Part shown: piece after piece, positions 7,502 through 30,152 of the stretch
How the letters are laid out: every line of letters starts with the position of its first letter
How positions within the stretch are numbered: the first letter of the stretch is position 1
Origin: a virus
Direction: 5' to 3' (one strand)
Length of the DNA stretch: 64,000 nt
IMG/VR virus record: IMGVR_UViG_3300030060_007423
Coordinates: 106,802-170,801 of that record
The notes under the pieces: model-generated
Seen by the model: the letters and a program-made list of their open reading frames with translations, nothing else
Databases searched by the model: none
What the model was told of the DNA's origin: nothing
Translations under genes and position numbers: made by a program

Positions 7502-7980
7502 AATTTAGAATAGAGGTTAGAAAAAAAGAGGAAAATACATGAGAAATTTAATTTTAACAATTGCTTTAGTATGTGGATTAGTTTTCACATCACAAGCACA
7601 AAACGCTAAAGGCGACTGGTATGTTGGAACTGGTGATATTGCTAATATCGCTTGGACTGACTGGGCAATAAACCCAACAATTGGATATGCAGTACATGAC
7701 AACCTTATGGTTGGCGCATCTGTATCACAAGCAAATGAAGAAGCTGATTTAGATATGGATTTCCACGCTAGATATTTCTGGAACGGATATTTCGGATATG
7801 TAGCGACTGATGGACTTAGCACTGATGGCATGCTATTAGGTGCTGGTAAAATGTTTACACTACGAAAAGGTGTCTATGTAGACCCTAAAGTAGTATATAA
7901 CTCAGGAGATAAGACAACGAACCTACAGTTAGGTTTCGGTCTTACATTTTAATTATTAATTAAACCCTCTAATCTAAATT
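7502..7980. repeat. Inverted repeat enclosing the beta-barrel gene (arms 7502-7518 and 7963-7980)
   Basis: AATTTAGA-A-TAGAGG-TT pairs with AA-C-CCTCTA-A-TCTAAATT (8+6 bp, one mismatch). Confidence 0.6.
7539..7952 (+). CDS. Small outer-membrane beta-barrel protein with Sec signal peptide
   Basis: Signal peptide ending SQA|Q; alternating amphipathic strands; C-terminal BAM-type signal LQLGFGLTF ending in Phe. Confidence 0.8.
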   Translation: MRNLILTIALVCGLVFTSQAQNAKGDWYVGTGDIANIAWTDWAINPTIGYAVHDNLMVGASVSQANEEADLDMDFHARYFWNGYFGYVATDGLSTDGMLLGAGKMFTLRKGVYVDPKVVYNSGDKTTNLQLGFGLTF

Positions 7981-8013
7981 ATTTTATTAACATTAACAAA
8001 GAAGGAGAAAACA

Positions 8014-8238
8014 ATGGATTCAGTAATTAAATACGTAACAGGTTTTTTTGGTGGATTGTTATCAATTATGATGGCAGTTTTACCAGTTACTATCGTTTGG
8101 CAAGTATTGACAGGCGGAAATGTATTTGGAATGGATGTTGTTGCTAATTTATCTGCTCTTGTAGAATCACTAGGTAATGGTGGTTTTGTAGGACTAGTAG
8201 TATTGGTAATAATTGCGTCATTCTTTACTAAGAAATAG
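8014..8238 (+). CDS. Small membrane protein (two TM helices)
   Basis: Two hydrophobic segments; AAGGAG RBS; followed by terminator. Confidence 0.7.
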   Translation: MDSVIKYVTGFFGGLLSIMMAVLPVTIVWQVLTGGNVFGMDVVANLSALVESLGNGGFVGLVVLVIIASFFTKK

Positions 8239-8261
8239 TTTTATTTGATAATAATCTAGTT

Positions 8262-8300
8262 AAACGGCTCTGAAGAAATTTGGAGCCGTTTTATTTTTAT
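8262..8300 (+). terminator. Rho-independent terminator
   Basis: AAACGGCTC (8262-8270)/GAGCCGTTT (8283-8291) stem followed by a T-rich tract. Confidence 0.8.
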
Positions 8301-8302
8301 TT

Positions 8303-8325
8303 GTCAATTATTTTTGTTATATTTA
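8303..8325 (+). promoter_or_regulatory. Phage promoter, YCAA-N8-GTTATATT class
   Basis: GTCAA-ttattttt-GTTATATTTA. Confidence 0.6.
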
Positions 8326-8344
8326 TTAAAAAGAAAATCAAACT

Positions 8345-8509
8345 ATGGAAACAATAGCAATTATTTTATTTGGAGCAGCTTGCTTCGCAATGGGAATGTA
8401 TGTAACTACTCAGATAAGTTCATGGATAGACAGTAGGATACAACATAAAAAGTTTATGAAAAACTTGGAAAACTTTGATAAAGACAAAGATGGAAATAAA
8501 AGCGTTTAA
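8345..8509 (+). CDS. Small membrane protein (54 aa, below ORF-track cutoff)
   Basis: METIAIILFGAACFAMGMYVT... directly after the promoter; one TM segment. Confidence 0.5.
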   Translation: METIAIILFGAACFAMGMYVTTQISSWIDSRIQHKKFMKNLENFDKDKDGNKSV

Positions 8510-8743
8510 TAAAGGATTAAAGGTTATAAGTAGTTGTAAGAATTATTCTCAAATTAGAGGAGCTTATAATTATGTACATAACTATAGAATCTTGTTTGGT
8601 AAAACAAAATTATGGAAAGACCTCTATAATTTTTGTGGTAGAAAACGAGAAATGTTAGGAGACTATGATGGAAGATAAGTATTGGGTAACAACAACTACA
8701 GCTGGTGATTACGAAGTTGTATATCATATAGTGGAGAATTAAT

Positions 8744-8962
8744 ATGGGATTTCATAAAAGATATATTAGTAATGACCAAATAATGAAAATGTATACCAAT
8801 GATGGAATGCAAAAGGTTTATGATTGGTATACAAAAGGTGTTGACGCATTAATTACAGAGACGGGCCTTGCATCAGATGTTGGAGATTTAATAGGAACAA
8901 ATGATGACTGGAATAAAATGTCAATATTAATATCAACAGCTGCAATTAAACAGGCAAAGTAA
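8744..8962 (+). CDS. Hypothetical protein
   Basis: MGFHKRYI start, GGAG RBS, coupled to next gene. Confidence 0.55.
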   Translation: MGFHKRYISNDQIMKMYTNDGMQKVYDWYTKGVDALITETGLASDVGDLIGTNDDWNKMSILISTAAIKQAK

Positions 8963-9477
8963 TGTCAGATATAGTTAGGAAGAGACATAGTAAAAGACCA
9001 CTTCTTCAGGCAGAACTTGAAGTTGCAATGAAAAATAGCAAATCAAATAAAGGTGCAGCTAGATTTTTAGGAGTATCGTATAACACATATAAAAAATATG
9101 CAAAGTTATATACAGATGAAAGTGGTACTACTCTTTTTGACAAACATCGTAACTGGTATGGAAGAGGTATTCCAAAAGTTAGAGACTTAGGAAAGATTCC
9201 ATTGGAAGAAATACTTGAAGGTAAACATCCAACATATCCAAGATGGAAACTTAGAGAGAGATTAGTTAAGGCTGGATATTTGGAAGGTGCATGCCAAAAT
9301 TGTGGATATTGTGAAACACGAATCACTGACGGGAGAAGTCCACTGCTTCTAGAATTTAGTGATGAAAATGTAAATAACTTGAAGGTAGATAATCTATACG
9401 AATTATGTTATAATTGTCACTTTCAATTAATAGGTGGATTAAATCAGAAAAAATCAAATAAATTACATGGAATTTAA
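8962..9477 (+). CDS. HTH + HNH-like zinc-finger protein (HNH site degenerate)
   Basis: AARFLGVSYNTYKKY helix-turn-helix; CQNC...NL..LCYNCH HNH/Zn pattern. Confidence 0.7.
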   Translation: MSDIVRKRHSKRPLLQAELEVAMKNSKSNKGAARFLGVSYNTYKKYAKLYTDESGTTLFDKHRNWYGRGIPKVRDLGKIPLEEILEGKHPTYPRWKLRERLVKAGYLEGACQNCGYCETRITDGRSPLLLEFSDENVNNLKVDNLYELCYNCHFQLIGGLNQKKSNKLHGI

Positions 9478-9488
9478 TAGAATTAGTT

Positions 9489-10094
9489 ATGAATAAAATA
9501 GATAGAAATAAATTAAATCCAAACAAGGTTGTTGGATTTACAGCAGGAAATTTTGACCTACTACATCCAGGTTATATTTATACATTTGAAGACGCAAGAA
9601 AACATTGTGATCACTTCATTGTATTTTTACAGAGAGACCCTTCAGCAACACGGTTTACTAAATATAAACCTGTGATACCATTGTATGAAAGATATAGGGC
9701 ATTGATGTCAATACAATATATTGATGAAGTATACATTTATCAAACTGAGGAGGAACTTTATGAATTAATTAAATTCTTCAAACCAGATGTAAGAATCCTT
9801 GGAGAAGATTATATTGGTAAACCTTGCACAGGAGATGATCTTCCTCCAAAAATTATTTATACAAGTAGAGCTCATGGTTGGTCAACAACTAAGTTAAAGG
9901 ATTTAATTACAAAGCAAACTGTAAAACAAAATCCAGATATACTTAATAATGAAAAAGATGAAGAAGACATGAGTGATGAGGTTGATAGAGAAGCAGAATG
10001 GTTAATTGACCAACATAATAGAAATAGACCAGCTGAAGAACATATTGATAACATTGATGATTTGCCACAGAATAATCAAGCATTTGGAGATTAA
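9489..10094 (+). CDS. Cytidylyltransferase family protein (glycerol-3-phosphate cytidylyltransferase-like)
   Basis: GFTAGNFDLLHPGY, KPVIPLYER, YIDEV, ILGEDY, RAHGWSTT. Confidence 0.85.
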   Translation: MNKIDRNKLNPNKVVGFTAGNFDLLHPGYIYTFEDARKHCDHFIVFLQRDPSATRFTKYKPVIPLYERYRALMSIQYIDEVYIYQTEEELYELIKFFKPDVRILGEDYIGKPCTGDDLPPKIIYTSRAHGWSTTKLKDLITKQTVKQNPDILNNEKDEEDMSDEVDREAEWLIDQHNRNRPAEEHIDNIDDLPQNNQAFGD

Positions 10095-10096
10095 TT

Positions 10097-10420
10097 ATGA
10101 AACATCCGTATTATGACAGTGATAGAAAAAAGAGAACAGAAAGATTTGCAATGGCAGCATGTTCCTTTAGCATAATTGGAATAGTTATCTTAATGATAGT
10201 TGCTTCATTCCTAAATTCTTGTAAAGATGCTCCAGAACCAACATTAGGCGATTTTCTTTCAGGTGATGAAAAAAATTTATTAGATACATTACAATCTATA
10301 ATACCAAATGGTGTTGGAATAATTGAATATGAAGATGGTACATGTGATAGTATAAGATACACTGAATCTGATGAAGATGTAAAGTGGATTGGAAATGATG
10401 GGGTAGAGTTTTATGATTAA
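10097..10420 (+). CDS. Membrane-anchored/lipoprotein-like hypothetical protein
   Basis: Hydrophobic segment ending LNSC (lipobox-like). Confidence 0.5.
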   Translation: MKHPYYDSDRKKRTERFAMAACSFSIIGIVILMIVASFLNSCKDAPEPTLGDFLSGDEKNLLDTLQSIIPNGVGIIEYEDGTCDSIRYTESDEDVKWIGNDGVEFYD

Positions 10421-10570
10421 AAAGACATGGGCAAACATATTATTTGTTTTAGCTTGTATTATAACAATACCAGTAGCAATAGGAATGACAGTATTTTTAT
10501 GGGTACTTGGTTCAGTTGCAATAGTATTGTCATCAATATTAACAACAATAGAAACATTAAGGAATAAGAA

Positions 10571-10789
10571 ATGAAAGTACATATTTACATACATAGAGAT
10601 GATGCAGCCACTGAAACTCTTGACCCTAAAACATATTGCATAAATCAACCTCCACAATACACTGAAGGTAAAAGTGATTATGTAATGGTTTCAATAACAA
10701 CAGACGAGTTTTGTGAGTTGGAAGATATGAGAGGTGATGCGACAGTTCAGGGCGACATATTAGATTCTGAAAAGCTACAGAATATTTAA
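10571..10789 (+). CDS. Hypothetical protein
   Basis: 72-aa ORF in a + strand gene train. Confidence 0.45.
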   Translation: MKVHIYIHRDDAATETLDPKTYCINQPPQYTEGKSDYVMVSITTDEFCELEDMRGDATVQGDILDSEKLQNI

Positions 10790-10923
10790 CAATAGATTAA
10801 CATTAGATTAATATAATTGTAGCATATTTTCTATATTTATTAATATGGAAACCAAAAAACTTGATATAACTCCTGCAATTTATGTAACAATAATGATTGT
10901 TGTATTCCTATTAGCACTCTAAT

Positions 10924-11001
10924 TGTTAATAACTTTTTTAGCTTTTTTTAGAAAAAAGTCTCCCAAAAATTTTTTTTTCCCAATAATTCTAGTTATATTT
11001 A
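10924..11001 (+). promoter_or_regulatory. TGTTAATAAC box + CCCAA-N8-GTTATATTTA promoter
   Basis: TGTTAATAAC 10924-10933; CCCAA 10979-10983; GTTATATTTA 10992-11001. Confidence 0.7.
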
Positions 11002-11029
11002 TATATAAATAATTGATAATACTAAAACT

Positions 11030-11485
11030 ATGATAATATACATTGACTTAGACGGTGTACTTGCTGACTTTCAAAAGGCTGCATCACAACATCCAGATTA
11101 TGGAACAAAAGGTTTCAGACCAGATTTAACATTAGATTTTTCTAAATTTGATATAATTCCTGGAGCAAAAGATGCGGTAAAACAAATACTAGATATGGGA
11201 CATGATGTTTATATTGCAAGCACGGCTCCTTGGGACAATCCAAATGCTTGGACTCAGAAGAGAGAATGGGTAGGAAAAAACTTTCCAGAACTAAAAAGAA
11301 AAGTATTTTTAACTCACCACAAAAACCTGCTTAAAGGTGACATTCTTATTGATGATTCAACATACAGAGGACAAACTGAGTTTGAAGGAGAATTTATGAA
11401 GTTTGACCCTAGCATTGGTTACGATTGGGATTTCATGGTTAAGTCAATTGATAATATGACTAAGTTGTTAAAAATAATTTGTTAA
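11030..11485 (+). CDS. 5'(3')-deoxyribonucleotidase (NT5C, HAD family)
   Basis: IYIDLDGVLADF, IASTAPW, KREWV, LKGDILIDD. Confidence 0.9.
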   Translation: MIIYIDLDGVLADFQKAASQHPDYGTKGFRPDLTLDFSKFDIIPGAKDAVKQILDMGHDVYIASTAPWDNPNAWTQKREWVGKNFPELKRKVFLTHHKNLLKGDILIDDSTYRGQTEFEGEFMKFDPSIGYDWDFMVKSIDNMTKLLKIIC

Positions 11486-11545
11486 TAACTTTTATAAAAA
11501 AGTTGTGAAAATAGTTTTTTTTCCCAATAATTCTAGTTATATTTA
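11480..11545 (+). promoter_or_regulatory. TGTTAATAAC box + CCCAA-N8-GTTATATTTA promoter
   Basis: TGTTAATAAC 11480-11489; CCCAA 11523-11527; GTTATATTTA 11536-11545. Confidence 0.7.
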
Positions 11546-11581
11546 TATATAACAAATTGGTAATAATAATAAATACTAAAT

Positions 11582-11923
11582 ATGAAAATAGATAAATCTA
11601 TCGCTACAAAGTTCAGAGCAGACTTTCAGAAAACTGTTCAAAAGTTAGAAAAAAAATACGGAATGAGAATCTCTTTAGGTAACATTCGCTATGATTCAGA
11701 AGAATTAAAGAGTACTTTGACAGCAATATCTGTTAAAGGTGGTGGTACCAAAAGACTTTCAATGTCTGATATATTTATTGGTGACAAGGTTTTGATTAAC
11801 CACAGAAAAACTAAAGGTCAATCATTTGAAGTTACTAAGAAAGCAATCAAGAATGTACAAGTTCAAAACACAAAAACTGGTGAAAGGTTTACTGTAGCGC
11901 CAAGTTTATTAATTAAAATATAA
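11582..11923 (+). CDS. Hypothetical basic protein (C-terminal SH3/KOW-like barrel possible)
   Basis: 113-aa ORF after promoter; IGDKVLI pattern. Confidence 0.55.
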   Translation: MKIDKSIATKFRADFQKTVQKLEKKYGMRISLGNIRYDSEELKSTLTAISVKGGGTKRLSMSDIFIGDKVLINHRKTKGQSFEVTKKAIKNVQVQNTKTGERFTVAPSLLIKI

Positions 11924-11926
11924 TAT

Positions 11927-13207
11927 ATGAAAGAATTAAAGCAGTTTATAGATGAAATGAAAAATACTTCTTCACTTAATGAAAAGAAGAAGATTATTGA
12001 AAAGTACAAAGACAATAAATTTATTATGAAGGTTATACAATATACTTATGACCCTTATAAGAAATACAATGTCACAAGTAAAAATTGTAAAAAGCTCTCT
12101 CATATTTGTGATGAAGATTGTGGATTTGTAGATTTGTTTGAATTGTTAGATGATTTAGATAATAGAACTTATACAGGACATGATGCAATTGCAATGGTTA
12201 ATGGATATATCTTTCAGAATTCAGATTATGAAGATGTAATTTTTGGTATCATTGACAGAAATATTGAGATTCGTGCAAATGCCAGTGTATTCAATAAAAT
12301 AATTCCAGGACTTGTACCAACATTTGATGTTGCATTAGCAACTAAATATGAATCAAGATTTTGTGATTTTGATAATGAAGAGTGGTATGCAAGTAGAAAA
12401 CTTGACGGTGTAAGATGTATTGTTAGAAAGGATGGAGATACTATTAAAGCTTACTCACGAGCTGGTAATGAATTCACAACTTTACAAAAAGTATTGGATG
12501 ATGTAAAGTTAATGCCTGGTGATTTTGTATTAGATGGTGAGATTTGTATGATGGATGAAAATGGCAATGAAGATTTTCAAGGTATCATGAAACAAATCAA
12601 AAAGAAGAATCATACTATTGAAAATCCAAAATTTGTTATATTTGATTACTTAAGTCTTAGTGAATTTGATAATAAAACTAGCCAAATGATTTTATCAGAA
12701 AGACTTAATGAACTCAAAGGAGAAATTCCACATGATGGGTATTATGATTACTTAACTTTACTTCCTCAGCAACTTGTAAATAGTGAAGAAGAACTTTTAG
12801 AGATGACAGCTGAAGCTGAAACCAATGGTTATGAAGGAGTTATGTTAAGAAAGAATGTTGGTTATGAAGGTAAGAGAAGCAAAAATCTTTTGAAATGTAA
12901 AAAATTCCATGATGCAGAATATAAAGTTATGGGAGCTACCAATGGAGATATTAGAATTATTGAAGATGGAAAAGAAAAGACAATAAATTGTTTGAGTATG
13001 ATTACAATAAATCATAAAGGAACTCAAGTTGGTGTTGGTTCAGGATTTAATTTTGACCAAAGAAAAGAATTTGGAAAGGATCACAGTAAAATTTTAGGTA
13101 AGACAATTACCGTACAATATTTTGAAGAAAGTAAAAATCAATTTGGAGAATACTCATTGAGATTTCCAGTAATTAAACATATATTTGAAAATGGAAGAAA
13201 TGTCTAA
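11927..13207 (+). CDS. lig: ATP-dependent DNA ligase
   Basis: RKLDGVR (motif I), VLDGEI (III), FDYL (IIIa), YEGVMLR (IV), LLKCK (V), SLRFP (VI). Confidence 0.95.
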   Translation: MKELKQFIDEMKNTSSLNEKKKIIEKYKDNKFIMKVIQYTYDPYKKYNVTSKNCKKLSHICDEDCGFVDLFELLDDLDNRTYTGHDAIAMVNGYIFQNSDYEDVIFGIIDRNIEIRANASVFNKIIPGLVPTFDVALATKYESRFCDFDNEEWYASRKLDGVRCIVRKDGDTIKAYSRAGNEFTTLQKVLDDVKLMPGDFVLDGEICMMDENGNEDFQGIMKQIKKKNHTIENPKFVIFDYLSLSEFDNKTSQMILSERLNELKGEIPHDGYYDYLTLLPQQLVNSEEELLEMTAEAETNGYEGVMLRKNVGYEGKRSKNLLKCKKFHDAEYKVMGATNGDIRIIEDGKEKTINCLSMITINHKGTQVGVGSGFNFDQRKEFGKDHSKILGKTITVQYFEESKNQFGEYSLRFPVIKHIFENGRNV

Positions 13208-13208
13208 T

Positions 13209-13727: not shown

Positions 13728-14019
13728 AGGAATTGCTCCACCAACATTTATGGAATTAAATGGTAAAAATTATTTAATGCCAGGTTTTACAGAAGTACCA
13801 CATTCGTGCGGTGTACACAACTGGAATGATTACATTGTTTGGGAAAGAATTGAAAGTAAAGATTCTCCAAGTGATAAGTGGACAGTTGAAAGTTCATCAA
13901 CAGCTGGAATATTTTACACTGTGAAAAAAGTTGGAGAAAATTATGAATGTGATTGTCCTGGCTATAGGTTTAGAAGAAAAGAATGTAGACACATTAGGGG
14001 AATAAAAGAGTCAGTATAA
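13714..14019 (+). CDS. SWIM zinc-finger protein
   Basis: YECDCPGYRFRRKECRHI. Confidence 0.8.
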   Translation: MIKYKGIAPPTFMELNGKNYLMPGFTEVPHSCGVHNWNDYIVWERIESKDSPSDKWTVESSSTAGIFYTVKKVGENYECDCPGYRFRRKECRHIRGIKESV

Positions 14020-14056
14020 ATCACAAATTGAATGTATAACTTAATATTTATAATAA

Positions 14057-18261: not shown

Positions 18262-18333
18262 TAACTTTGACAATATTGTTAATAACTTTACGTAAAAGTA
18301 TAGCATAAAACCCAATAAATCTAGTTATATTTA
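18256..18333 (+). promoter_or_regulatory. Two TGTTAATAAC boxes + CCCAA-N8-GTTATATTTA promoter
   Basis: Boxes 18256-18265 and 18277-18286; CCCAA 18311-18315; GTTATATTTA 18324-18333. Confidence 0.7.
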
Positions 18334-18386
18334 TAATATAATTGGTTCGGATAGAAATTAAAAATTAAAACAAAAAAACGTCGCTT

Positions 18387-19592
18387 ATGAAAAATGTAAT
18401 CTTAAAAGCTGGTCTTAACGAGAGTGGTAAACCAGTATTGACTGACAAGGTTGGCAATCAGTTTGAATGTCCTGTAAAGGATAAAGCCAACAAACAAAAA
18501 TTAACGTGGGCTGTTAAAAAAGAAGCCTATGTAAAAGTAATAATGAAGGAGGGCGGAGCCATGTCCTACTCAGTATCTAATAGTAGTACTGAAAAGGATT
18601 GGACTAAAGATGCCACGTCTATATTGACAGACCAGTGGTTGAATAAACCTGCTGCTAATGTACCTGCTGAACAGGCTGAGGTAATGGCATTCATTCAGAA
18701 ATCTCCTGAGTTAAAACCAGATACTCTTAAGATGCAAGACCTTAAATGGAAATATCTTGTTAGGTCTGCAATGAGAGGTAAAAATATTATGATGACTGGT
18801 CCTGCAGGATGTGGTAAAACTATGGCAGCTAAAACTGTTGTGAACGCATTAGACAGACCAGAATTTTATTTCAACCTTGGGGCAACTCAAGATCCTAGAG
18901 CTACCTTAATTGGTAATGTCCACTTCAATAAAGAGAGTGGTACGTTCTTCTCTGAATCAATGTTTGTGAAAGCAATACAGACTGAGAATGCTGTAATACT
19001 CATGGATGAGCTTTCACGTGCTCACCCCGAGGCTTGGAATATATTAATGACTGTATTAGACGAAGGTCAGAGATACTTAAGGTTAGATGAAGCTGATGGC
19101 TCTCCAACTATTAAAGTAGCTCCAGGTGTAACATTTATCGCTACTGCCAATATAGGTAATGAATATACAGCGACAAGAGTTATGGACCGAGCGTTATTAG
19201 ACAGGTTTATTATTGTAGAGATGGATACTCTAAATGCTTCTGAGGAGTTTGAGTTGTTAACAAAACTATTTCCTAATGTGGATACTAAAACAGTTAACGC
19301 CATATCTGAAATTGCTCATGCTACTAGAGTTGAGGTTAAGAGTGAAGTTGCGAGAATCTCTACTTCTATTTCTACCAGAGCTTGTGTTGAAATGACTAGC
19401 CTTGTTTACGACGGGTTTAGTTTAACAGAAGCTGCTGAGGTTATTATGTATCCACAATACGATGATGCGGGTGGAGCTGATAGCGAAAGAACATTCGTAA
19501 AACAACTTGTACAGAAATTCTGTGACGATGGTACCGATGAAGATTTATTCAACACTGAAGATGTTGACGGTGCTGATGACAACCAGCAATAA
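18387..19592 (+). CDS. MoxR/CbbQ/NirQ-type AAA+ ATPase
   Basis: GPAGCGKT Walker A, ILMDE Walker B, IATAN sensor I, DRALLDRF Arg finger. Confidence 0.9.
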   Translation: MKNVILKAGLNESGKPVLTDKVGNQFECPVKDKANKQKLTWAVKKEAYVKVIMKEGGAMSYSVSNSSTEKDWTKDATSILTDQWLNKPAANVPAEQAEVMAFIQKSPELKPDTLKMQDLKWKYLVRSAMRGKNIMMTGPAGCGKTMAAKTVVNALDRPEFYFNLGATQDPRATLIGNVHFNKESGTFFSESMFVKAIQTENAVILMDELSRAHPEAWNILMTVLDEGQRYLRLDEADGSPTIKVAPGVTFIATANIGNEYTATRVMDRALLDRFIIVEMDTLNASEEFELLTKLFPNVDTKTVNAISEIAHATRVEVKSEVARISTSISTRACVEMTSLVYDGFSLTEAAEVIMYPQYDDAGGADSERTFVKQLVQKFCDDGTDEDLFNTEDVDGADDNQQ

Positions 19593-19610
19593 GCGACGAT
19601 TGCTAAGAAG

Positions 19611-19642
19611 GGGGGTGGACATTTAGAGCCATCCCCTATTCT
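19611..19642 (+). terminator. Probable terminator hairpin
   Basis: GGGGGTGG (19611-19618)/CCATCCCC (19629-19636) then TATTCT. Confidence 0.55.
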
Positions 19643-19644
19643 AT

Positions 19645-19721
19645 TGTTAATAACTTTGTTAATAACTTTAGAAAATAACTATGAAATAATTTTTATTTCC
19701 CAACAATAATAGTTATATTTA
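19645..19721 (+). promoter_or_regulatory. Two tandem TGTTAATAAC boxes + CCCAA-N8-GTTATATTTA promoter
   Basis: Boxes 19645-19654 and 19657-19666; CCCAA 19699-19703; GTTATATTTA 19712-19721. Confidence 0.7.
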
Positions 19722-19756
19722 TATTATAAATAACGGATTAAACTAATAGAGATACT

Positions 19757-21766
19757 ATGACAAATTATTCAAGCTTTTGGTTAGATGACAATTTTGACAA
19801 TGACATTGACATTCTGACAGGTGAATCAATCGTGAAACCTGGTAAGGACCTCATCAAGCTAGCCGGTTATCAAAGAGCAATCGCTAACTTTGTTAACATC
19901 GTAACAGGTAAACACGTTCCTGTTAAATTCAAACAAAATGGTAATAGCTATACTGATGGCAAATCTATCGTGATTAGCTCAAGTCTAAAGGACAAGGATT
20001 TCGACCCTGCTGTTGGACTTGCTCTTCACGAAGGTAGCCACATATTGTTGTCTGACTTTCAATTCCTTAAAGACTTAGAGAGCCACATACCTGCTGACAT
20101 TACAAATACAGTAATGATTAAATATGATTATGATAGATACAACGCTAACTATCATATCTTAAATAATCTAAAAGATTTGTTAAACATTGTTGAGGACAGA
20201 CGTATTGACAACTACGTGTTTAAGTCTGCTCCTGGTTATAAAGGTTACTACCACTCAATGTATGACAAATACTTTAACTCTAAAATTATAGACAAAGGAT
20301 TGGCAAGTTCTGAATTTAGAATCCCAACCTTTGAAGCTTATATGTTCCGTATCTGTAACATTACTAATAACCATAGAGACCTCAACGCATTACCTGGTCT
20401 AAGAAAGATATGGAATCTAATGGACTTAAAGAATATCGGTGATGTAAAGAGTACTGAAGAGGCCTTTCAAATTGCTTGTGAAATATATAAAGTAATTGAA
20501 GAAAACATTGAGGCTCCTAAACCAGAGGATAATGATTGTGATGGCAATTGTGATGGTGATGGTAATGAACAACAAACTGAGAATAGAGATGGCGGTACTC
20601 CTAAAACACCAGAAGGAGAATCTGATGACGATGGTTCTACTACAACAGGTACTGATTGTACTAATGGTAATACCACATCAACTATTGACTTAGAGGATTT
20701 AACTGACAAACAAAAACAACAGTTAAAGAAAGCTATTCAAAAGCAAAAGAGTTTCCAGGATGGAGATATTAAGAAAGGCGGAATGAGTAAGAAAGATGCT
20801 AGTTCATTAAATGCTATTCAGCAAGGAGATGTTGAGGTTACTAATGTTGGTAATGGAGTAGACGGATGGAGAAAGACTAGTGGTGGTACTAACTGTATTG
20901 TTATTAATGGTATTACTAAAACATTGATTGATGAGAATCCATTTGACGTGTTTATCAACAAAGACTGGTATGGTAGTAGAATGGAGCAGTTTCAACACTC
21001 TGTAGACAAAGGACTTGTATTAGGACAAAAACTTGGTAGAAAGTTACAGGTTAGAAACGAGGAGAACAGCCTTAGATACACACGATTGAATACAGGAAAG
21101 ATAGATAAAAGATTGATTGCTAGTTTAGGCTATGGTGCTGAGAGTGTATTTGAACAAGTATTTACTAGCAGCCATAACGATGCCAACGTACATATCTCAG
21201 TAGATGCTAGTGGTAGTATGAGTGGCCGTAGATATAACAAGGCTATGACTACCTGCGTGGCTATAGCTAAAGCAGCCAGCATGGTTGGTAATCTAAACGT
21301 TCAGATAAGCTTCCGTACTACAGTGGAAAGTGGTGGCACTAACACACCATGTATAGTGATAGCGTATGACTCTAGAAAAGACAAGATCGTAACGATTAAA
21401 TCACTATTCAAATACTGTGTAACTCTAGGGACAACACCAGAAGGACTATGTTTCGAGGCCATTCAAAAACACATGGTACAGAGCAATGGTAGTATGGATA
21501 GCTACTTTATAAACCTCTCAGATGGAGAACCTTATTTTGAGAACCGAGATATTCAATATTGGGGCCAGACAGCTGCTAGCCATACCGCAAAACAAGTGAA
21601 AAACATGCGTGGTGGTGGTATAGAGGTACTGAGCTACTATATAGATGGTGGTAGCGACGTTAGTGCCCAATTTAAGACTATGTATGGTGCCTCTAGCGCT
21701 AGTATAGATACAAACAACCTTACCCAACTGGCCACTACTCTAAATAAATTATTCCTTGGCCAGTAG
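19757..21766 (+). CDS. CobT-like protein: HExxH domain + acidic linker + VWA domain (MoxR partner)
   Basis: ALHEGSH, NIVEDRRID; acidic linker; MIDAS DASGSM, GTTPEG, LSDGEP. Confidence 0.85.
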   Translation: MTNYSSFWLDDNFDNDIDILTGESIVKPGKDLIKLAGYQRAIANFVNIVTGKHVPVKFKQNGNSYTDGKSIVISSSLKDKDFDPAVGLALHEGSHILLSDFQFLKDLESHIPADITNTVMIKYDYDRYNANYHILNNLKDLLNIVEDRRIDNYVFKSAPGYKGYYHSMYDKYFNSKIIDKGLASSEFRIPTFEAYMFRICNITNNHRDLNALPGLRKIWNLMDLKNIGDVKSTEEAFQIACEIYKVIEENIEAPKPEDNDCDGNCDGDGNEQQTENRDGGTPKTPEGESDDDGSTTTGTDCTNGNTTSTIDLEDLTDKQKQQLKKAIQKQKSFQDGDIKKGGMSKKDASSLNAIQQGDVEVTNVGNGVDGWRKTSGGTNCIVINGITKTLIDENPFDVFINKDWYGSRMEQFQHSVDKGLVLGQKLGRKLQVRNEENSLRYTRLNTGKIDKRLIASLGYGAESVFEQVFTSSHNDANVHISVDASGSMSGRRYNKAMTTCVAIAKAASMVGNLNVQISFRTTVESGGTNTPCIVIAYDSRKDKIVTIKSLFKYCVTLGTTPEGLCFEAIQKHMVQSNGSMDSYFINLSDGEPYFENRDIQYWGQTAASHTAKQVKNMRGGGIEVLSYYIDGGSDVSAQFKTMYGASSASIDTNNLTQLATTLNKLFLGQ

Positions 21767-21774
21767 AGGGTACA

Positions 21775-23362: not shown

Positions 23363-23371
23363 CCGTGAAAT

Positions 23372-23445
23372 GGACCAGTAGCTCAGCTGGATAGAGCAAC
23401 AGCCTTCTAAGCTGTAGGTCATAGGTTCGAATCCTATCTGGTTCA
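23372..23445 (+). tRNA. tRNA-Arg (TCT)
   Basis: Cloverleaf: GGACCAG/CTGGTTC acceptor, GCTC/GAGC D arm, ACAGC-CTTCTAA-GCTGT anticodon arm, ATAGG-TTCGAAT-CCTAT T arm; CCA not encoded. Confidence 0.95.
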
Positions 23446-23905: not shown

Positions 23906-23945
23906 TATATAAATAAATAACTAATACTAATTAAAAAATAACACT

Positions 23946-24473
23946 ATGCCTAGAACTAAAAAGCCTAATGAAGTAATTTACGGAATTGAAATTACTAAAC
24001 CTCATTCATCAGAAATGTATTCTCACAACCACATGGTTGCTGACGAAATGAAAGCCAATATTCTCAACAAATGGAATGCTTTGATATATGGAATTGACCC
24101 TGAAACGGATTGGGAAGATTTTGCAGATAATGAAAGTACTGTTGAGCTTCAAAAATTAGTTTGCTTTTCTGGCTATGGTAGCGGTTATACTTTAGGTGAT
24201 GTAGATAAAGAGTTTAGAAATGAACTGGAGAATATGCAGAACTATGCTATTCACGAAGAATACTCTTACGGTTGTTTTTCAGGACTTCTACCTAGAACTA
24301 GTTTTATGATGGTTGGTCACGGTTGGTCAAAGCATGACTACCACAATAAAGGAGCGGAATCTAATCTTTCTCCTCATGCACCTGTTCCATGTTCAAAAGA
24401 ATTGGATATTGAAATGGCAACTGAATCTGAAAACTTTGAATTTTTAACTGGCGAAGCCTTAATAAACCACTAG
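23946..24473 (+). CDS. Hypothetical protein
   Basis: 175-aa ORF after promoter. Confidence 0.6.
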   Translation: MPRTKKPNEVIYGIEITKPHSSEMYSHNHMVADEMKANILNKWNALIYGIDPETDWEDFADNESTVELQKLVCFSGYGSGYTLGDVDKEFRNELENMQNYAIHEEYSYGCFSGLLPRTSFMMVGHGWSKHDYHNKGAESNLSPHAPVPCSKELDIEMATESENFEFLTGEALINH

Positions 24474-24478
24474 GAGAT

Positions 24479-25141
24479 ATGAATGAAACACCGTTTACAA
24501 AAACACTACAGAGAATAACAGAAGCTGAAGAACATTATGGAGAATGGATTGCTCCAAACTTACAGGCAGATGGTTGGACAGGTACATATAGTCTTGCAGT
24601 TGACCAAATATCAAAAGACATACCTCAAACTAAAAATGGTTGGAATTGGTCAAATATACTTGCAGATAGTAAAGGTCGTGGTGTAGAGTTGGCAATAAAG
24701 GTTAAAGAAGATGGTTGGGGTAAATGGGAATACCATCCACATGTTGAGAGTGTAAAGTATTATATTGCCAAGTTAAAACAAAAAGGTATAAAGGTTTATG
24801 ACTGGCAAATCATTAATGATAGCTGGGCCGTAAATGCATTAGAACGTTTAGGGCTTGAAGAAGTAACAAGGTGGTGTCAAGAAAAGGGTGGTACTCTCAG
24901 GTTCAAAGACCCTCACATGGTAAACTATAAAACCTATTACACATTTCATATAAGAACTGGCTATGTTCGTAGAACACAACATGGACCTAATCCTTGGGGT
25001 AGTGGAAAACGGTGGACATGTTATCAAATTGCTGGTACTAACAGAAAAAAGATATATAATAACTTTCCAAGAATGGTTCACAAAGCTTTAAGGTCTATTG
25101 AAAGATACCAACAAAATAACTGGGATACATTAGATATATAA
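24479..25141 (+). CDS. Hypothetical Trp-rich protein
   Basis: 220-aa ORF, AGGAG RBS. Confidence 0.6.
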   Translation: MNETPFTKTLQRITEAEEHYGEWIAPNLQADGWTGTYSLAVDQISKDIPQTKNGWNWSNILADSKGRGVELAIKVKEDGWGKWEYHPHVESVKYYIAKLKQKGIKVYDWQIINDSWAVNALERLGLEEVTRWCQEKGGTLRFKDPHMVNYKTYYTFHIRTGYVRRTQHGPNPWGSGKRWTCYQIAGTNRKKIYNNFPRMVHKALRSIERYQQNNWDTLDI

Positions 25142-25156
25142 TTAAAAATAATAAAA

Positions 25157-25540
25157 ATGGTAAAAAAGAAAAAGCATAAATTCAAAATAGGCGACAACGT
25201 AACATTCAAGTTCTTTGATGGTGGTACATACACTGGCGTTGTTGACAAGCTTTCATATATGGGAGAGCTTACAGGAAATGTAAACTATCAGTTACCACAA
25301 ATTAGAGTAGCTGTTAAAAATAAAAATGTCAAGTACCCTTACACTTATTATCCCATTAGCGAGCATTATGTACTTAAACGCAATGGAAAGGTTAACCCTA
25401 ATGCAATCAACCTTCCAAGCAAAGATAATAAGCCCAAGAGGAAGGCTAGTAGTAAAATTGCAAAGACTAATAATAAGTCTGAATTGCAACAAGCAATCGA
25501 TAAACAAAAAGAATTCTTAAATCACAATTATGAAAACTAA
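25157..25540 (+). CDS. Hypothetical protein (KOW/SH3-like N-terminus)
   Basis: KFKIGDNVTFKF...YTGVV. Confidence 0.55.
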   Translation: MVKKKKHKFKIGDNVTFKFFDGGTYTGVVDKLSYMGELTGNVNYQLPQIRVAVKNKNVKYPYTYYPISEHYVLKRNGKVNPNAINLPSKDNKPKRKASSKIAKTNNKSELQQAIDKQKEFLNHNYEN

Positions 25541-25910
25541 ATTAGAAATACATAAAGGTGTACACGTCAAAAAAAGTAAAGGTAGAGGTTGGGGTGTATT
25601 CACTAGTGAAAAAATAAATAAAGGAGATATTGTAGAGGAGTGTATTATTCCCTATGATGTTTTACCTATTGGTTCAACTGCATTACCAAACTATAGATAT
25701 GTTTGGCCAAACCGTACAAATTATACTGCATATTGTATAGCGCTAGGCTTTGGTTGTATATACAATCACAATGAAGAAAGTCCAAATATTGATTGGGACC
25801 TTGACCCTGAAGAAAGAATAATGCGGTTTACAGCAATAAAGGATATTGATGCAGGTGACGAACTAATGTTTGACTATCAATCTCCAGTATTAAACTTTGA
25901 AACTAAATAA
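25530..25910 (+). CDS. SET-domain protein (putative lysine methyltransferase)
   Basis: GRGWGVFT..I.KGD, YNHN...PN, AIKDIDAGDELMFDY. Confidence 0.9.
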   Translation: MKTKLEIHKGVHVKKSKGRGWGVFTSEKINKGDIVEECIIPYDVLPIGSTALPNYRYVWPNRTNYTAYCIALGFGCIYNHNEESPNIDWDLDPEERIMRFTAIKDIDAGDELMFDYQSPVLNFETK

Positions 25911-26421
25911 TATGTCAAAGAAACAAAATTTAATTAAATATATTAATAGTACACATGATGTATTTGAGCTGGGTACTATAGTTGAACAAAAGTCAAGTGA
26001 TAACTTAGATGTTGCATTTGAACAGTTAGATGATACGTATAGTAAAAAGGTATTACTGAATTCATATAATCATATGGGCCAACTAAATTTACCTGCAGCT
26101 ACGCCAGGAGTATATCGTTTATCATATTATGGTGTAGTATTCTATATTGGTTCTAGTACTAAGGATATGTCAAATAGAACAAATAGTCATAAACTGGATA
26201 TTGAAAGAAAAGATAAAAAGTTTAAGTTTGTCTGGGATATTGCAAATGACAAATTAGAGCCAGAAGGTCTAATGGTTGAATATAGACCAACGACTAATTT
26301 TATGGCACCAGCATTTGAACTGTGGTCAATTATTAAACATCAGCCTGCATGCAATAGCTCTGGTACATCTAAAACAGCAGCTGATAAAAAAAATGATGAT
26401 GGGAGTGAAAAAAGTTCGTAA
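25897..26421 (+). CDS. GIY-YIG nuclease family protein
   Basis: PGVYRL...FYIGSS...NRTNSH...E...PACN. Confidence 0.75.
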   Translation: MKLNNMSKKQNLIKYINSTHDVFELGTIVEQKSSDNLDVAFEQLDDTYSKKVLLNSYNHMGQLNLPAATPGVYRLSYYGVVFYIGSSTKDMSNRTNSHKLDIERKDKKFKFVWDIANDKLEPEGLMVEYRPTTNFMAPAFELWSIIKHQPACNSSGTSKTAADKKNDDGSEKSS

Positions 26422-26522
26422 ACCTAGCTATAATCCCATGAGAAATGGTTATATTGAATAAATCAATAAACAATTGCATTTATCAAATATATTATTTACC
26501 AAACTTATAAAAATTATAAAGT

Positions 26523-27521
26523 ATGATTAATTATGGATACGCTTGTATTAACCTAGAGTTAAGAAAGCAAAAAATTACAACTAATCGTGGAATGATTAGA
26601 AGAACCTTCGACGCAAAGGGTCTACCCTATGTATCTGAAATAGCTATAAAAAATATTACTGACCAATTAAAGATTGTACAATGGAATATCGAAAATGGTA
26701 TTAGTGTATATCGAATGTCAGGTAGTTTATTTCCGTGGATGAGTGAATATGAATTTTCTGAATTACCCGAGTACGATACTATTAAATCTATACTTGCTGA
26801 AACAGGTAAGTTAGCTATGGATAATGGACAAAGACTATCCTTCCACCCTGGACAATTTTGTGTTCTTTGTTCACCTACACCAAAGACTGTTGACAATGCA
26901 ATTATTGAACTGGATAGACATTCACAAATAATGGATATGATGGGATTACCAATATCACCAGCTGCAAAGATTAACATACATGTTGGTGGTGCCTATGGTG
27001 ATAAAGAATCAGCACTTAAACGTTGGTGTAAAAATTTCAAAAGATTAGAACCAAATACTCAGAAACGTTTAGTTGTTGAAAATGACGACAAAGCAAGTAT
27101 GTATTCAGTACAAGATTTATATGAAGGTGTACATAAGGTTATAGGCATACCAATTACATTTGATTATTATCATCATAAGTTCTGCACAGGTGGATTGACA
27201 GAGGAAGAAGCGCTAAAGCTAGCTGCAAGTACCTGGCCAAAAGATATAAGACCATGTACTCATTATTCAGAATCTAGAAGATATGAGCAGAAACTTATGA
27301 TGGAACAAATATGTGAACGTAATGATATTCCATTTAAGGCATTAGAAGAAACGCCAGACGAATGGCCTACATTATCTAATCACCTTAAGGAATTCAAAAA
27401 AACTAAAGAGCAAGCACATTCAGATTATATATTGGAAAAACCAGATTGCTATGGTTTGGACATTGACTGTGTTGTAGAAGCAAAAGCAAAAGAACAATCA
27501 ATTATTAATTTTATTAACTAA
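26523..27521 (+). CDS. uvsE: UV-damage endonuclease
   Basis: GYACIN, YRMS, RLSFHPGQF, INIHVGG, LVVENDD, FDYYHH, HYSES, AHSDYI, EAKAKE. Confidence 0.95.
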   Translation: MINYGYACINLELRKQKITTNRGMIRRTFDAKGLPYVSEIAIKNITDQLKIVQWNIENGISVYRMSGSLFPWMSEYEFSELPEYDTIKSILAETGKLAMDNGQRLSFHPGQFCVLCSPTPKTVDNAIIELDRHSQIMDMMGLPISPAAKINIHVGGAYGDKESALKRWCKNFKRLEPNTQKRLVVENDDKASMYSVQDLYEGVHKVIGIPITFDYYHHKFCTGGLTEEEALKLAASTWPKDIRPCTHYSESRRYEQKLMMEQICERNDIPFKALEETPDEWPTLSNHLKEFKKTKEQAHSDYILEKPDCYGLDIDCVVEAKAKEQSIINFIN

Positions 27522-27553
27522 GACCGGCTTGCAGCCCAACTGCTAAATTAAAG

Positions 27554-27868
27554 ATGGCAAGAAATAAATATCGTAGACAGCCTTGGAAAAAACAACAGAA
27601 AACAGTTCATAACCAACACAAACCATTTAATCCTGGTAAGTATGGTAAACTATGGGCATCAATGAATTGGGAGTGCGAATGGGGTAGAACACCTCAAGGA
27701 GATGCACAAGGACCAGTTATTGGTAAATTATGTATTGGAGGACAACAGTTTGAATTAACATGGACAGAATGTAACAGATTAATTGAAACTTTAACCGATG
27801 CAAAACACCAACATAAAGTTGGAACATCAATGGGGTTTGAAAGAGGACACGGAACTTATAGAGGCTAA
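27554..27868 (+). CDS. Hypothetical protein
   Basis: 104-aa ORF. Confidence 0.55.
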   Translation: MARNKYRRQPWKKQQKTVHNQHKPFNPGKYGKLWASMNWECEWGRTPQGDAQGPVIGKLCIGGQQFELTWTECNRLIETLTDAKHQHKVGTSMGFERGHGTYRG

Positions 27869-27892
27869 TATTTATATAAAAGGAGAAGCGTT

Positions 27893-28138
27893 ATGGAAAT
27901 TGTATTATCAATATGTTTAGGTTTAACTTTAGGTTTTGTTGGTTCATATTTTTACATGAATAAAAAACTAACAAATATGGAATCTGAATTTGAACAGTTT
28001 AAGTTTGACAAAGCATTTATTGTTAAATGTTTAAGAGATGAATTAAAAAAAGTTCAACCTAAACCAAGAAAGAAGTACTATTCAAAAAATGGCAAAAGCA
28101 AATCAACACGTAAAGAAGGTAACCGAAAGACTGCTTAA
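27893..28138 (+). CDS. Small membrane-anchored protein
   Basis: N-terminal TM helix, basic tail; AAGGAG RBS. Confidence 0.55.
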   Translation: MEIVLSICLGLTLGFVGSYFYMNKKLTNMESEFEQFKFDKAFIVKCLRDELKKVQPKPRKKYYSKNGKSKSTRKEGNRKTA

Positions 28139-28418
28139 TGCGTCTGAACAAATAGACGACTTAAAAAGTGTTGGCGGTAGTGATGGACTATTTAAGGCAA
28201 TTACAAATATGGGTGAAAAGAATCTAGACTATATGGAAAAAATTGAATCAATAGAAAGACTAATGATTACAACAGAAAGTTTAGATTCTGACATTCATAA
28301 AAATGTTATTGTAAGTTCAAAAGAATATTTATTACAGAATGGTACATTAACCAAAAACATGATGTTGAGCTTAAACCAAATATATACATATTATAAAAAC
28401 ATGCGAGGTAATATATGA
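28089..28418 (+). CDS. Hypothetical protein
   Basis: 109-aa ORF. Confidence 0.5.
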   Translation: MAKANQHVKKVTERLLNASEQIDDLKSVGGSDGLFKAITNMGEKNLDYMEKIESIERLMITTESLDSDIHKNVIVSSKEYLLQNGTLTKNMMLSLNQIYTYYKNMRGNI

Positions 28419-28606
28419 TGATAATTCCAGAACAATACAAAAATGATTTGGATAAAATATATGAAAGAACTAAAAACTCTAATGAAAAAATGTTAATGGA
28501 ATTCAAAAAGTATTTTATGAATGTTGAACCAAAGGAGTTAAATTCAGACTGGGCATGGGTAGCAACACAATGTTATCATGTATATAAAAATAAATCTGAC
28601 CGCTAG
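28415..28606 (+). CDS. Hypothetical protein
   Basis: 63-aa coupled ORF ending at the tmRNA 5' boundary. Confidence 0.45.
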   Translation: MMIIPEQYKNDLDKIYERTKNSNEKMLMEFKKYFMNVEPKELNSDWAWVATQCYHVYKNKSDR

Positions 28607-28822
28607 TACTTATGTCAGCTGCATTCTTGGACCCGGGTTCGAATCCCGGCATCTCCACTAAAACCCATTATGATATGGGGATGACACGGATTTGACAGGA
28701 TGATAAGAGCATAAGGAAGGTCACCGCAACAACTGGCGAACAAGTTGAAATGGCGATGGCAGCGTAGTACGCTCCCTGACCCGAACGGTATAAAAGAGGT
28801 CATGTCGTAAAAACCTCGGAGG
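28596..28822 (+). ncRNA. ssrA: Circularly permuted (two-piece) tmRNA; tag (A)GEQVEMAMAA*; outer boundaries approximate
   Basis: T arm CCGGG-TTCGAAT-CCCGG and 3' acceptor strand CATCTCC-A (28633-28657) precede the 5' strand GGGGATG (28677-28683) with G3.U70; D-loop GGATTTGAC; helix 2 pairings; tag ORF 28735-28767. Confidence 0.9.
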
Positions 28823-28842
28823 ATGGTAGGTAAACTATAATT

Positions 28843-29586
28843 ATGAGCATAGAAACAAAATATTTTTCAATTGACGATTTATATAACGTAGATAACAAAT
28901 CTTCGTTTTGGAAATTTATAGAGGGCGAAGTAAAAGTTGCTTTAAGTAAATCTTCAATGTCAAGTTCAAAAAAAGCAGATGCTCTTAATCTATTTAAGAA
29001 ACAATATATTAAAAAGTTTTTTATAAGACATACTAAATCACCAAGTGATTATAATAAACCTTGGGATTTAGATAAATATGACCTAGAGTCAATTAAAAAT
29101 AATACAGATGGTCAATGGGCACCACCACCTAATGCTGATGACTATAGGTTTGATTTAGAAAATGCTCAATATGTAATTGAAAAATTTATATGGATGCAAA
29201 TACACCCAGATGATAGAAGGGATTTATTTGATAATGATATTGATAAATTTGATGACTGGGTTGTAACATTATCTGAATCACAAATAGATGAAGTTGTACA
29301 AAAAATTCAAAATGGTGAAAGACTAGGTGATCTTGATTATGAAAGTATAAAGGATTCACTATATGAACTTGATGATGGTACAATCAGAGTATTTAAGATA
29401 GACGGATTAATGATTATGTCTTCACTAAATAAAGATTCGCTGGAAACAGCATGCGTAAAAATCTTTATGAAGAAAGGTATAACATTTAAGTATAGAACAA
29501 CTGAAAACTATAAAGGAAAAACTGTACACTCCTATATATTTAGGATTGACGGACGTAATGACAATAAAAATGACAATATGTCATAG
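28843..29586 (+). CDS. Hypothetical protein
   Basis: 247-aa ORF. Confidence 0.6.
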   Translation: MSIETKYFSIDDLYNVDNKSSFWKFIEGEVKVALSKSSMSSSKKADALNLFKKQYIKKFFIRHTKSPSDYNKPWDLDKYDLESIKNNTDGQWAPPPNADDYRFDLENAQYVIEKFIWMQIHPDDRRDLFDNDIDKFDDWVVTLSESQIDEVVQKIQNGERLGDLDYESIKDSLYELDDGTIRVFKIDGLMIMSSLNKDSLETACVKIFMKKGITFKYRTTENYKGKTVHSYIFRIDGRNDNKNDNMS

Positions 29587-29612
29587 TTACTATAGTTTGC
29601 ACAGTTTTTTCA
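29559..29612 (+). promoter_or_regulatory. Palindrome TGACA-N3-TGTCA plus sigma54-like element upstream of hsp20
   Basis: TGACA 29559, TGACAATATGTCA 29571-29583; TTGCACAGTTTTTTCA 29597-29612 resembles TGGCAC-N5-TTGCA. Confidence 0.4.
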
Positions 29613-29646
29613 GTATATTAATTAAAGGTTATATAATGGTTATATT

Positions 29647-30152
29647 AAGTGTACTGAGTAGGCACAAAATTAAAATTATCTAAGGAGATTAATTATGGGA
29701 AATTATTTTTTACATGAGCGGTTGTTTCCAACCGACTTATTTTTCAAAAACTTTTTTGATACACAAACTGAGTTTCAATCGTTTGCAGATGTTAAGCCAC
29801 AATATCCAGTTGATATTATGGTAACAGATTATGCACTAACGTTTGATATTGCATGTGTTGGTTTGGACAAAAAAGATATAACATTAGACGTTACTGATAA
29901 TACCTTACGGGTTATCTATGAAAAACCAAACATTGAATCAAATCCATCTGATGAAGATGCAGGTGAATATATCCATAGAGGTATTACTCGGAAGAGTTTT
30001 AATATGGGTTGGAAAATTGCACCACGGTATGATTTGAGTCAAATAGAAGCAGTTATGAAAAACGGATTGTTAAGTATAACAATTCCATTGTTTGAAGAAG
30101 CAAAACCAAAAACAATTAAAATTAAATAAATAGTGTTTTACTCAGTACACTT
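29647..30152. repeat. Inverted repeat enclosing hsp20 (arms 29647-29665 and 30133-30152)
   Basis: AAGTGTACTGAGTA/TACTCAGTACACTT 14 bp perfect, extendable with G.U pairs. Confidence 0.8.
29695..30129 (+). CDS. Small heat-shock protein (Hsp20/alpha-crystallin)
   Basis: YPVDI, IACVGLDKKDI, YIHRGITRKSF, AVMKNGLLSITIP, KPKTIKIK. Confidence 0.93.
   Translation: MGNYFLHERLFPTDLFFKNFFDTQTEFQSFADVKPQYPVDIMVTDYALTFDIACVGLDKKDITLDVTDNTLRVIYEKPNIESNPSDEDAGEYIHRGITRKSFNMGWKIAPRYDLSQIEAVMKNGLLSITIPLFEEAKPKTIKIK

Follow-up and report, generated by a model that had tools for sequence, protein, structure and literature searches.

The stretch of DNA analyzed here (hereafter the window) comprises 64,000 bp of a phage contig from the IMG/VR database: bases 106802–170801 of the 170,801-bp record IMGVR_UViG_3300030060_007423. 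It has a G+C content of approximately 32%, and essentially all genes – open reading frames (ORFs) being called by a simple heuristic of our own – lie on the plus strand. Kinship to Flavobacterium phage vB_FspM_immuto is only distant at the DNA level; the hosts of this phage lineage are likely to be Bacteroidota. Three genes in the window, encoding a putative small beta-barrel protein, an AAA+ ATPase and the small heat-shock protein Hsp20, are each bracketed by a pair of complementary arms. The three pairs had been noticed in an initial annotation, and all are present in the sequence at the positions then given (Table 1). Comparisons with related loci show predicted helices that are kept by compensatory change, fixed in position and specific to these three genes.

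Table 1. Window positions of the three bracketed genes, their arms and associated elements.
Feature	Position	Strand	Remarks
Promoter-like box TATATTTAT	7453..7461	+	upstream of barrel gene
Barrel 5' arm	7502..7518	+	in leader, ~20 nt upstream of ATG
Barrel gene	7539..7952	+	137-aa exported protein, putative small beta-barrel
Barrel 3' arm	7963..7980	+	begins 11 nt past stop
Promoter-like box, long repeated class	18326..18334	+	upstream of ATPase gene
ATPase 5' arm	18379..18388	+	spans -8 to +2 of start codon
AAA+ ATPase gene	18387..19592	+	Pfam AAA_5 and bpMoxR; phrog_249, CobS-like
ATPase 3' arm	19589..19598	+	overlaps TAA stop
Local G-rich hairpin	19610..19638	+	after ATPase 3' arm; paired in whole-unit fold
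hsp20 5' arm	29647..29665	+	upstream of Shine-Dalgarno; 14 perfect bp plus extension with G.U pairs
hsp20 Shine-Dalgarno AAGGAG	29682..29687	+	outside helix
hsp20 gene	29695..30129	+	144 aa; Pfam HSP20, 3e-12
hsp20 3' arm	30133..30152	+	begins 3 nt past stop
Run of seven T	30151..30157	+	at/after end of hsp20 3' arm; terminator-like look

For hsp20 and the barrel gene the 5' arm is part of the leader, and for the ATPase gene it falls on the start codon; the 3' arm of each pair comes just past the unit's last stop codon. The hsp20 pair is a perfect 14-mer (29647–29660 with 30139–30152) that two G.U pairs and a bulge extend to 29665/30133; the ATPase pair is a perfect 10-mer that reaches into both the start codon (its first two bases, AT) and the TAA stop; the barrel pair is imperfect, consisting of 8 bp, a one-base irregularity and a further 6 bp (RNAduplex, -16.1 kcal/mol). 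Each arm taken alone is essentially unstructured locally, and the closing helix is present in both the minimum free energy and the centroid fold of the whole unit for all three genes. Alternative local hairpins at the 3' arms, to which the initial annotation had drawn attention, do exist, but they are weak (-3.3 and -3.7 kcal/mol) and no better than those of shuffled sequences; the remaining 3' arm gives 0 kcal/mol. A dispersed repeat, discounted from the outset, is rejected: the hsp20 arm occurs just twice in 171 kb, once in each orientation, and is otherwise unique in the genome.

Pattern scans of IMG/VR and marine metagenomes yielded 145 hsp20 loci (38–95% protein identity), of which 88 are non-redundant and have usable flanks. 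In nearly all of the 88 the leader pairs strongly with the sequence just past the stop codon, and the average duplex between flanks of the same locus (-36.1 kcal/mol) is significantly more stable than that between flanks of different loci (-22.9 kcal/mol; P=1.6e-35). The helices have a median of 16 ungapped bp (range 10–23), are longer where bulged extensions are present, and end a median of 43 nt upstream of the ATG. Their arms belong to at least eight sequence families that occupy the same positions and are alike in nothing but complementarity; double substitutions are seen inside arm families as well. Because an alignment of all families (A2, made with MAFFT) loses the register of the arms, the formal count of base pairs is limited to two sister families (alignment A3, 18 sequences). 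In A3 the 17-pair helix is 94.1% paired, with six of the 17 pairs changing on both sides: the covariation score of 0.298 compares with 0.170 for shuffled alignments (none of 500 reached 0.298), and partners slid by one to three columns pair at only 25–41% of positions. Since many members of an arm family are related to one another, the events are fewer, if taken as independent, than the cell counts suggest. Cross-locus controls preserve composition and not phylogeny, although 85 other gene groups (described below) serve as an empirical null.

Eight hsp20 loci have no partner directly behind the stop of hsp20 itself; their 3' arm is 220–250 nt further on and begins 2–4 nt past the stop of an inserted DUF2061 gene, an arrangement found with four arm families. 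Since the 3' arm moves to a position after the DUF2061 stop, the helix brackets the unit and not the gene. The compensatory changes fit the initial proposal of an mRNA closed into a loop, with one gene, and sometimes two, inside it. The inserted gene encodes a membrane protein of 68–79 aa (L124:1041–1256, L039:2937–3143, L101:1193–1399 and five other loci); among hsp20 relatives, the genes inside the bracket thus vary and the bracket is kept.

The hsp20 cassette, complete with arms, is found among unrelated neighbors (that is, in non-syntenic positions) in several contigs, and homology stops at the 3' arm. Comparison of contigs indicates that cassettes move within this phage group. Cellular relatives of the gene were absent from a pattern scan of 185,579 genomes, and a search of the hsp20 flanks against Rfam returned no family at E values up to 10 except for one chance hit. 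The nearest cultured hsp20 genes (Synechococcus phage S-8S53 and Pelagibacter phage HTVC115P) lack a bracket and end in local terminators of the ordinary kind: the feature therefore belongs to this uncultured marine clade. Within the leader, the segment around the Shine-Dalgarno sequence (29666–29697) is nearly invariant at the nucleotide level (A2 and A3) across 40–95% protein identity. This segment might fold into a small AU-rich hairpin whose loop and stem take in the Shine-Dalgarno sequence, possibly a separate thermometer-like element.

For the ATPase gene, the helix score was calculated between a window of -25 to +6 around the ATG and one of -6 to +30 around the stop, with the expectation taken from all cross-locus pairs. 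Among 62 non-redundant loci the score is at least 10 in 30 (2.4 expected) and at least 11 in 11 (0.6 expected). The 30 helices that score at least 10 comprise 21 distinct arm cores, yet their position is nearly constant: the 5' arm extends from approximately -7 to +3 of the ATG, which it overlaps in 22 cases and approaches to within 3 nt in 27, and the 3' arm begins a median of 2 nt past the stop. One relative with 97% identity has altered the outermost pair in compensated fashion. Microcystis phage Mel-JY01 carries the nearest cultured relative of the ATPase, a longer, fused gene. The barrel gene behaves similarly, with scores of at least 10 in 12 of 36 loci (2.7 expected) and arms of several unrelated, G+C-containing families located approximately 33–44 nt before the ATG and approximately 17 nt after the stop. 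Median helix length is 11 bp for the ATPase and 12 bp for the barrel. Many barrel relatives (for example L234, L236 and L246) have in addition a small local hairpin, of 5-bp arms and a 3–4-nt loop, that lies 0–15 nt past the stop and before the 3' arm; it is absent from the window. Covariation in related phages, which the initial annotation had named as a check, is thus found at hsp20, ATPase and barrel loci alike: pairing is kept while the arms change. All three pairs are found again in relatives, in the same places and with other sequences, far above cross-locus controls; they are therefore non-random.

How widely the arrangement extends among the genes of these phages was surveyed in six genomes: that of the window and five related phage contigs of 130–145 kb, whose ORFs were called and assembled into reciprocal-best-hit groups. 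Eighty-eight orthologue groups with at least four members entered the survey, with 129 ORFs that have fewer than four orthologues falling outside it; the accessory genes at 27893–28138 and 7158–7403 have one near-identical relative each. Over the 88 groups the difference between same-genome and cross-genome helix scores averages 0.07 and shows no excess (Wilcoxon P=0.78). The first three ranks are nonetheless held by hsp20 (+6.0), barrel (+5.4) and ATPase (+2.7), with z values of 9.4, 8.5 and 4.3 relative to the other 85 groups – exactly the three genes that the initial annotation had named – and the fourth group (+1.9) owes its score to AT-only promoter palindromes. Brackets around several genes were sought in 151 syntenic spans of two to six genes across the six genomes, and none stands out. 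As only three of 88 groups stand out, the device is gene-specific.

Tests confined to this one genome gave a different picture. When the flanks of 217 ORFs (-60 to +5 of the start, -5 to +60 of the stop) were paired with RNAduplex, own flanks (mean -12.73 kcal/mol) showed no excess over mismatched flanks (-12.83 kcal/mol; Mann-Whitney P=0.85), nor did same-gene duplexes when only the 65 units with flanking spacers of 30 nt or longer were considered (P=0.48 and P=0.73), although this genome-wide test is without power for helices of 10 bp. Grouping genes by the longest perfect complement between their own flanks gives 26 with 8 nt or more (29 expected), three with 10 nt or more (2.9 expected) and one with 14 nt or more (approximately none expected): that one is hsp20, the sole outlier in this genome. 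An annotation-free count of long-range inverted 14-mers is at background, with five observed against 3.8 in Markov shuffles. Judged on this genome only, a device common to the whole phage is not upheld, and all pairs but that of hsp20 would pass for noise. The comparison of same-gene with shuffled pairs that had been suggested as a check returned a null result, and the device, carried by three of 88 testable genes, cannot be called phage-wide. More generally, single-genome statistics can miss genuine long-range helices in AT-rich DNA, whereas same-versus-cross tests over orthologues detect them.

If the arms act in the transcript, G.U pairs should be tolerated more readily than A.C mismatches. 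G:T and A:C appositions were scored symmetrically, and G.U exceeds A.C by 49:9 in unique hsp20 stems and by 6:0 in ATPase stems, bearing out the suggestion of RNA-level pairing that had been based on the hsp20 extension. Furthermore, the ATPase arm contains coding bases (the ATG and first codons), the arms are not conserved in sequence, and in all 79 loci that could be scored the neighboring genes point the same way as hsp20. Together with the predicted folds, these data favor pairing in the sense transcript, and we regard it as very likely that the arms form selected sense-strand RNA helices. The opposing possibility, that the arms function in DNA – as terminal inverted repeats of a mobile cassette, as invertase sites, or as halves of a hairpin into whose loop a gene was inserted – would accommodate the presence of the hsp20 cassette with its arms in non-syntenic contexts, the end of homology at the 3' arm, and a barrel set that lacks G.U bias. 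A recombinase, however, is expected to leave a conserved terminal sequence, and what is found is at least eight unrelated hsp20 arm families and 21 ATPase arm cores, complementary within a locus and unlike between families. Stretches of 10–14 bp are also too short for repeats to be homogenized via homologous recombination. No inverted orientation was seen among the 79 hsp20 loci with co-oriented flanks, empty sites not having been searched for systematically. With the G.U excess and the coding bases in the ATPase arm also against it, a DNA-level explanation is highly improbable. Chance matching in AT-rich flanks has a still smaller claim, close to nil: it draws on the fact that a 10-mer and an imperfect pair such as that of the barrel occur at background frequency within this genome alone, but it does not explain why helices of differing sequence recur in place in 88, 62 and 36 loci, or why the three genes occupy the top three of 88 ranks. 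The comparative tests have already refuted it.

The boundaries of the units bear on what such helices might do. A box, TATATTTAT(A), is present in 27–31 copies on the plus strand of the genome and 4–7 on the minus strand, and nearly every copy has a start codon no more than 120 nt downstream. Each of the three genes of the window has such a box before it, that of hsp20 being degenerate. In hsp20 relatives the box ends a median of 11 nt before the 5' arm; this arm is therefore probably at the very 5' end of the transcript. One class of the box belongs to a repeated intergenic element of approximately 45 nt (a T-rich stretch, TTTCCCAA, approximately 8 nt, TAGTTATATTTATA) with sites at 10994, 11538, 18046, 18326, 19714 and 23898 of the window and at genome position 64266; a second class of promoter-like box is TTGATATTTATA. 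At the other end of the hsp20 unit, at least four T directly follow the 3' arm in 29 of 69 loci (42%), and the run is absent from the remaining 40, close relatives with identical arms among them. A local terminator after the unit was found in two of these 69 loci and in none of the other 67, where the next ORF starts 20–40 nt on. The G-rich hairpin that follows the ATPase 3' arm is a possible conventional terminator.

Given these data, each of the three genes is probably a self-contained expression cassette, with a long-range helix that would close its sense transcript. For hsp20 and the barrel gene this helix would clamp the ends of the mRNA, such that both termini are paired and resistant to nucleases; the helix would at the same time take the place of the missing local terminator hairpin and isolate the folding of the cassette RNA from that of its neighbors. 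In the ATPase mRNA, by comparison, the helix would act as a mask, provided by the untranslated region at the 3' end (3'-UTR), that hides the AUG: translation could then begin only before the 3' arm has been transcribed, or while a ribosome on the stop codon keeps the helix open. That translation itself keeps the ATPase helix open, the 3' arm being within reach of a ribosome at the stop, is speculation. Clamping of ends together with gating of translation may be the main function, an interpretation we hold tentatively and against which several points weigh. The three helices are placed differently (one close to the 5' end, one in mid-leader and one over the AUG), and one function may not fit all three; translational gating is inapplicable to hsp20, because its helices are very stable and leave the Shine-Dalgarno sequence untouched. 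At the threshold used, roughly every second ATPase locus and two in three barrel loci lack a helix, and barrel stems show no G.U bias (5:8). Finally, strand bias and position are the sole grounds for regarding the box as a promoter. A bolder and unlikely variant holds that the helices are portable RNA insulators that travel with a gene and free its cassette from context, the hsp20 helix being a terminator with the gene in its loop and the ATPase helix a translation-gated switch. In the former the leader arm would pair with the nascent 3' arm and polymerase would be released; in the latter a ribosome at the stop would unzip the helix and free the start codon, so that only mRNAs under translation stay open.

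Other functions have been considered for the same helices. Canonical substrates of RNase III extend over approximately two helical turns (roughly 20 bp), and the host enzyme might recognize the helices as processing stalks and excise a monocistronic mRNA from same-strand read-through transcripts, as it does with the rRNA leader–trailer helix. The location of the genes on one strand, the scarcity of local terminators and the length of the hsp20 helices (up to 23 ungapped bp, and more with extensions) all accord with this, as do the presence of RNase III in a Bacteroidota control genome and the precedent of the icaR mRNA, in which a duplex between 5' and 3' regions is an RNase III substrate (PMC3868564). 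ATPase and barrel helices of only 10–13 bp fall short of that length, however, and the phage contig yielded no RNase III gene; we judge processing to be rather unlikely. For hsp20 only, the arms could instead be halves of a split intrinsic terminator with the gene in the loop, the leader arm and nascent 3' arm pairing before a U-run and releasing polymerase. At least four T directly past the 3' arm in the window, in its closest relative and in the 29 loci mentioned above, and the near absence of any other terminator before an ORF 20–40 nt away, are what such a device would predict. The T-run is nevertheless missing from 40 of the 69 loci, including close relatives with the same arm; the ATPase gene has a local hairpin of its own past the 3' arm; pairing may be kinetically too slow; and we know of no terminator with a loop of 0.5 kb. 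Measured against intrinsic terminators, the units have loops of 0.5–1.2 kb, a U-tract in a minority of hsp20 loci and weak local hairpins, and the split terminator appears quite unlikely. Long-range thermosensors, melting on warming to switch on stress genes (a small heat-shock protein and a chaperone-like ATPase), are less likely still. Known heat-shock thermometers occlude the start region, two of the three genes are of chaperone type, and the ATPase helix is short, pays a large loop penalty and hides the AUG. But the hsp20 helix lies off both the Shine-Dalgarno sequence and the AUG, and with its 16 bp or more it has a stability that mild warming would not overcome; the barrel gene has no link to heat; and there is no Rfam thermometer family here. 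The helices do not resemble the ROSE, fourU or hsp17 thermometers: what covers the AUG of the ATPase is a long-range helix and not a weak local hairpin of the leader.

[quoted passage not shown] The contention that no similar system has been described was thus too strong. In the icaR mRNA of Staphylococcus aureus the 3'-UTR pairs with the Shine-Dalgarno region (PMC3868564). It is to this that the ATPase comes closest, as a segment past the stop pairs with the region where translation of that mRNA is initiated; but the icaR partner is a short UCCCC motif within a long 3'-UTR, whereas the phage 3' arm abuts the stop codon, and the ATPase helix covers a start codon rather than a Shine-Dalgarno sequence. 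The evidence also differs in kind, being experimental for icaR and, for the ATPase helix, covariation among 21 distinct arm cores. Closest to the hsp20 and barrel helices is the hbs mRNA of Bacillus subtilis, where a 14-bp interaction between 5'- and 3'-UTR modulates cleavage by RNase Y (PMC5737220). The likeness lies in a leader/3'-UTR helix of approximately 14 bp, linked to stability, in a short, highly expressed, monocistronic mRNA; hbs, however, belongs to a different phylum with a different set of nucleases, and the phage hsp20 helices are often longer and followed by a U-run in 42% of loci.

More remote likenesses are offered by transcripts closed end to end or bracketed by helices. The mRNAs of hok-type type I toxins show fold-back inhibition, with pairing of 5' and 3' ends keeping the full-length transcript stable and inert until it is opened. 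The phage transcripts would share closure from end to end; hok mRNA, however, is opened by 3' trimming and has an antisense partner, neither of which is evident in the phage units, and the phage genes are not toxins. The rRNA leader–trailer helix and the RNase III sites of phage T7 have at least 20 bp and are proven substrates of that enzyme, those of T7 being local hairpins between genes. Both resemble the present helices in bracketing a functional RNA inside a longer transcript, although the T7 hairpins are local and the pairs described here span a gene. Morons and T4-type promoter-plus-stem-loop cassettes are autonomous mobile accessory units with a promoter of their own and an ordinary local terminator hairpin; they too are accessory-gene units that move between phage genomes, but in the cassettes described here the sole structure after the gene is half a helix, the other half of which lies before the gene. 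The hok mRNA is mentioned in PMC3868564 and the rRNA leader–trailer helix in PMC10250234; engineered long-range occlusion of a ribosome binding site (PMC12697547) is a further precedent. Literature searches returned no phage example of such 5'/3' pairing.

Intramolecular pairing of 5'- and 3'-UTRs in bacterial-type mRNAs has so far been known from only a few genes that were studied by experiment. The heavy covariation seen in marine metagenomes for three phage gene families, unrelated to one another, amounts to natural series of compensatory mutants. The ATPase provides a clear natural case of a start codon masked from 1.2 kb away; initiation in Bacteroidota is thought to rely mainly on an unstructured start region and less on Shine-Dalgarno pairing. 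The hsp20 cassette raises the question of whether a terminator-like helix is functional with a whole gene in its loop.

With regard to the genes themselves, the 137-aa barrel product matches no Pfam or PHROG family, and the two features on which its putative assignment is based are a signal-peptide-like N-terminus and a C-terminal Phe. The ATPase gene is followed by a CobT-like gene at 19757–21766 (669 aa, with matches to CobT_C and VWA); ATPase and VWA protein (18387–21766) resemble the phage CobS/CobT pair, and the bracket is on the ATPase gene only. The order of the cassettes varies: those of barrel and hsp20 are 22 kb apart in the window and near neighbors in IMG/VR 3300030419_005427 and 3300017757_000088 (loci L006/L268 and L038/L233), while in another genome (G005) hsp20 is located approximately 3 kb upstream of the ATPase gene, as opposed to 10 kb downstream in the window. 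Upstream of hsp20, positions 28608–28767 match a circularly permuted (two-piece) transfer-messenger RNA (tmRNA) gene (Rfam RF04321, 65.6 bits against a gathering score of 47); ARAGORN places the tmRNA at 28566–28858, with the tag peptide GEQVEMAMAA. A tRNA-Arg gene (anticodon TCT), on which ARAGORN and Rfam agree, is located at 23372–23445 in an ORF-poor region of approximately 21.9–23.9 kb.

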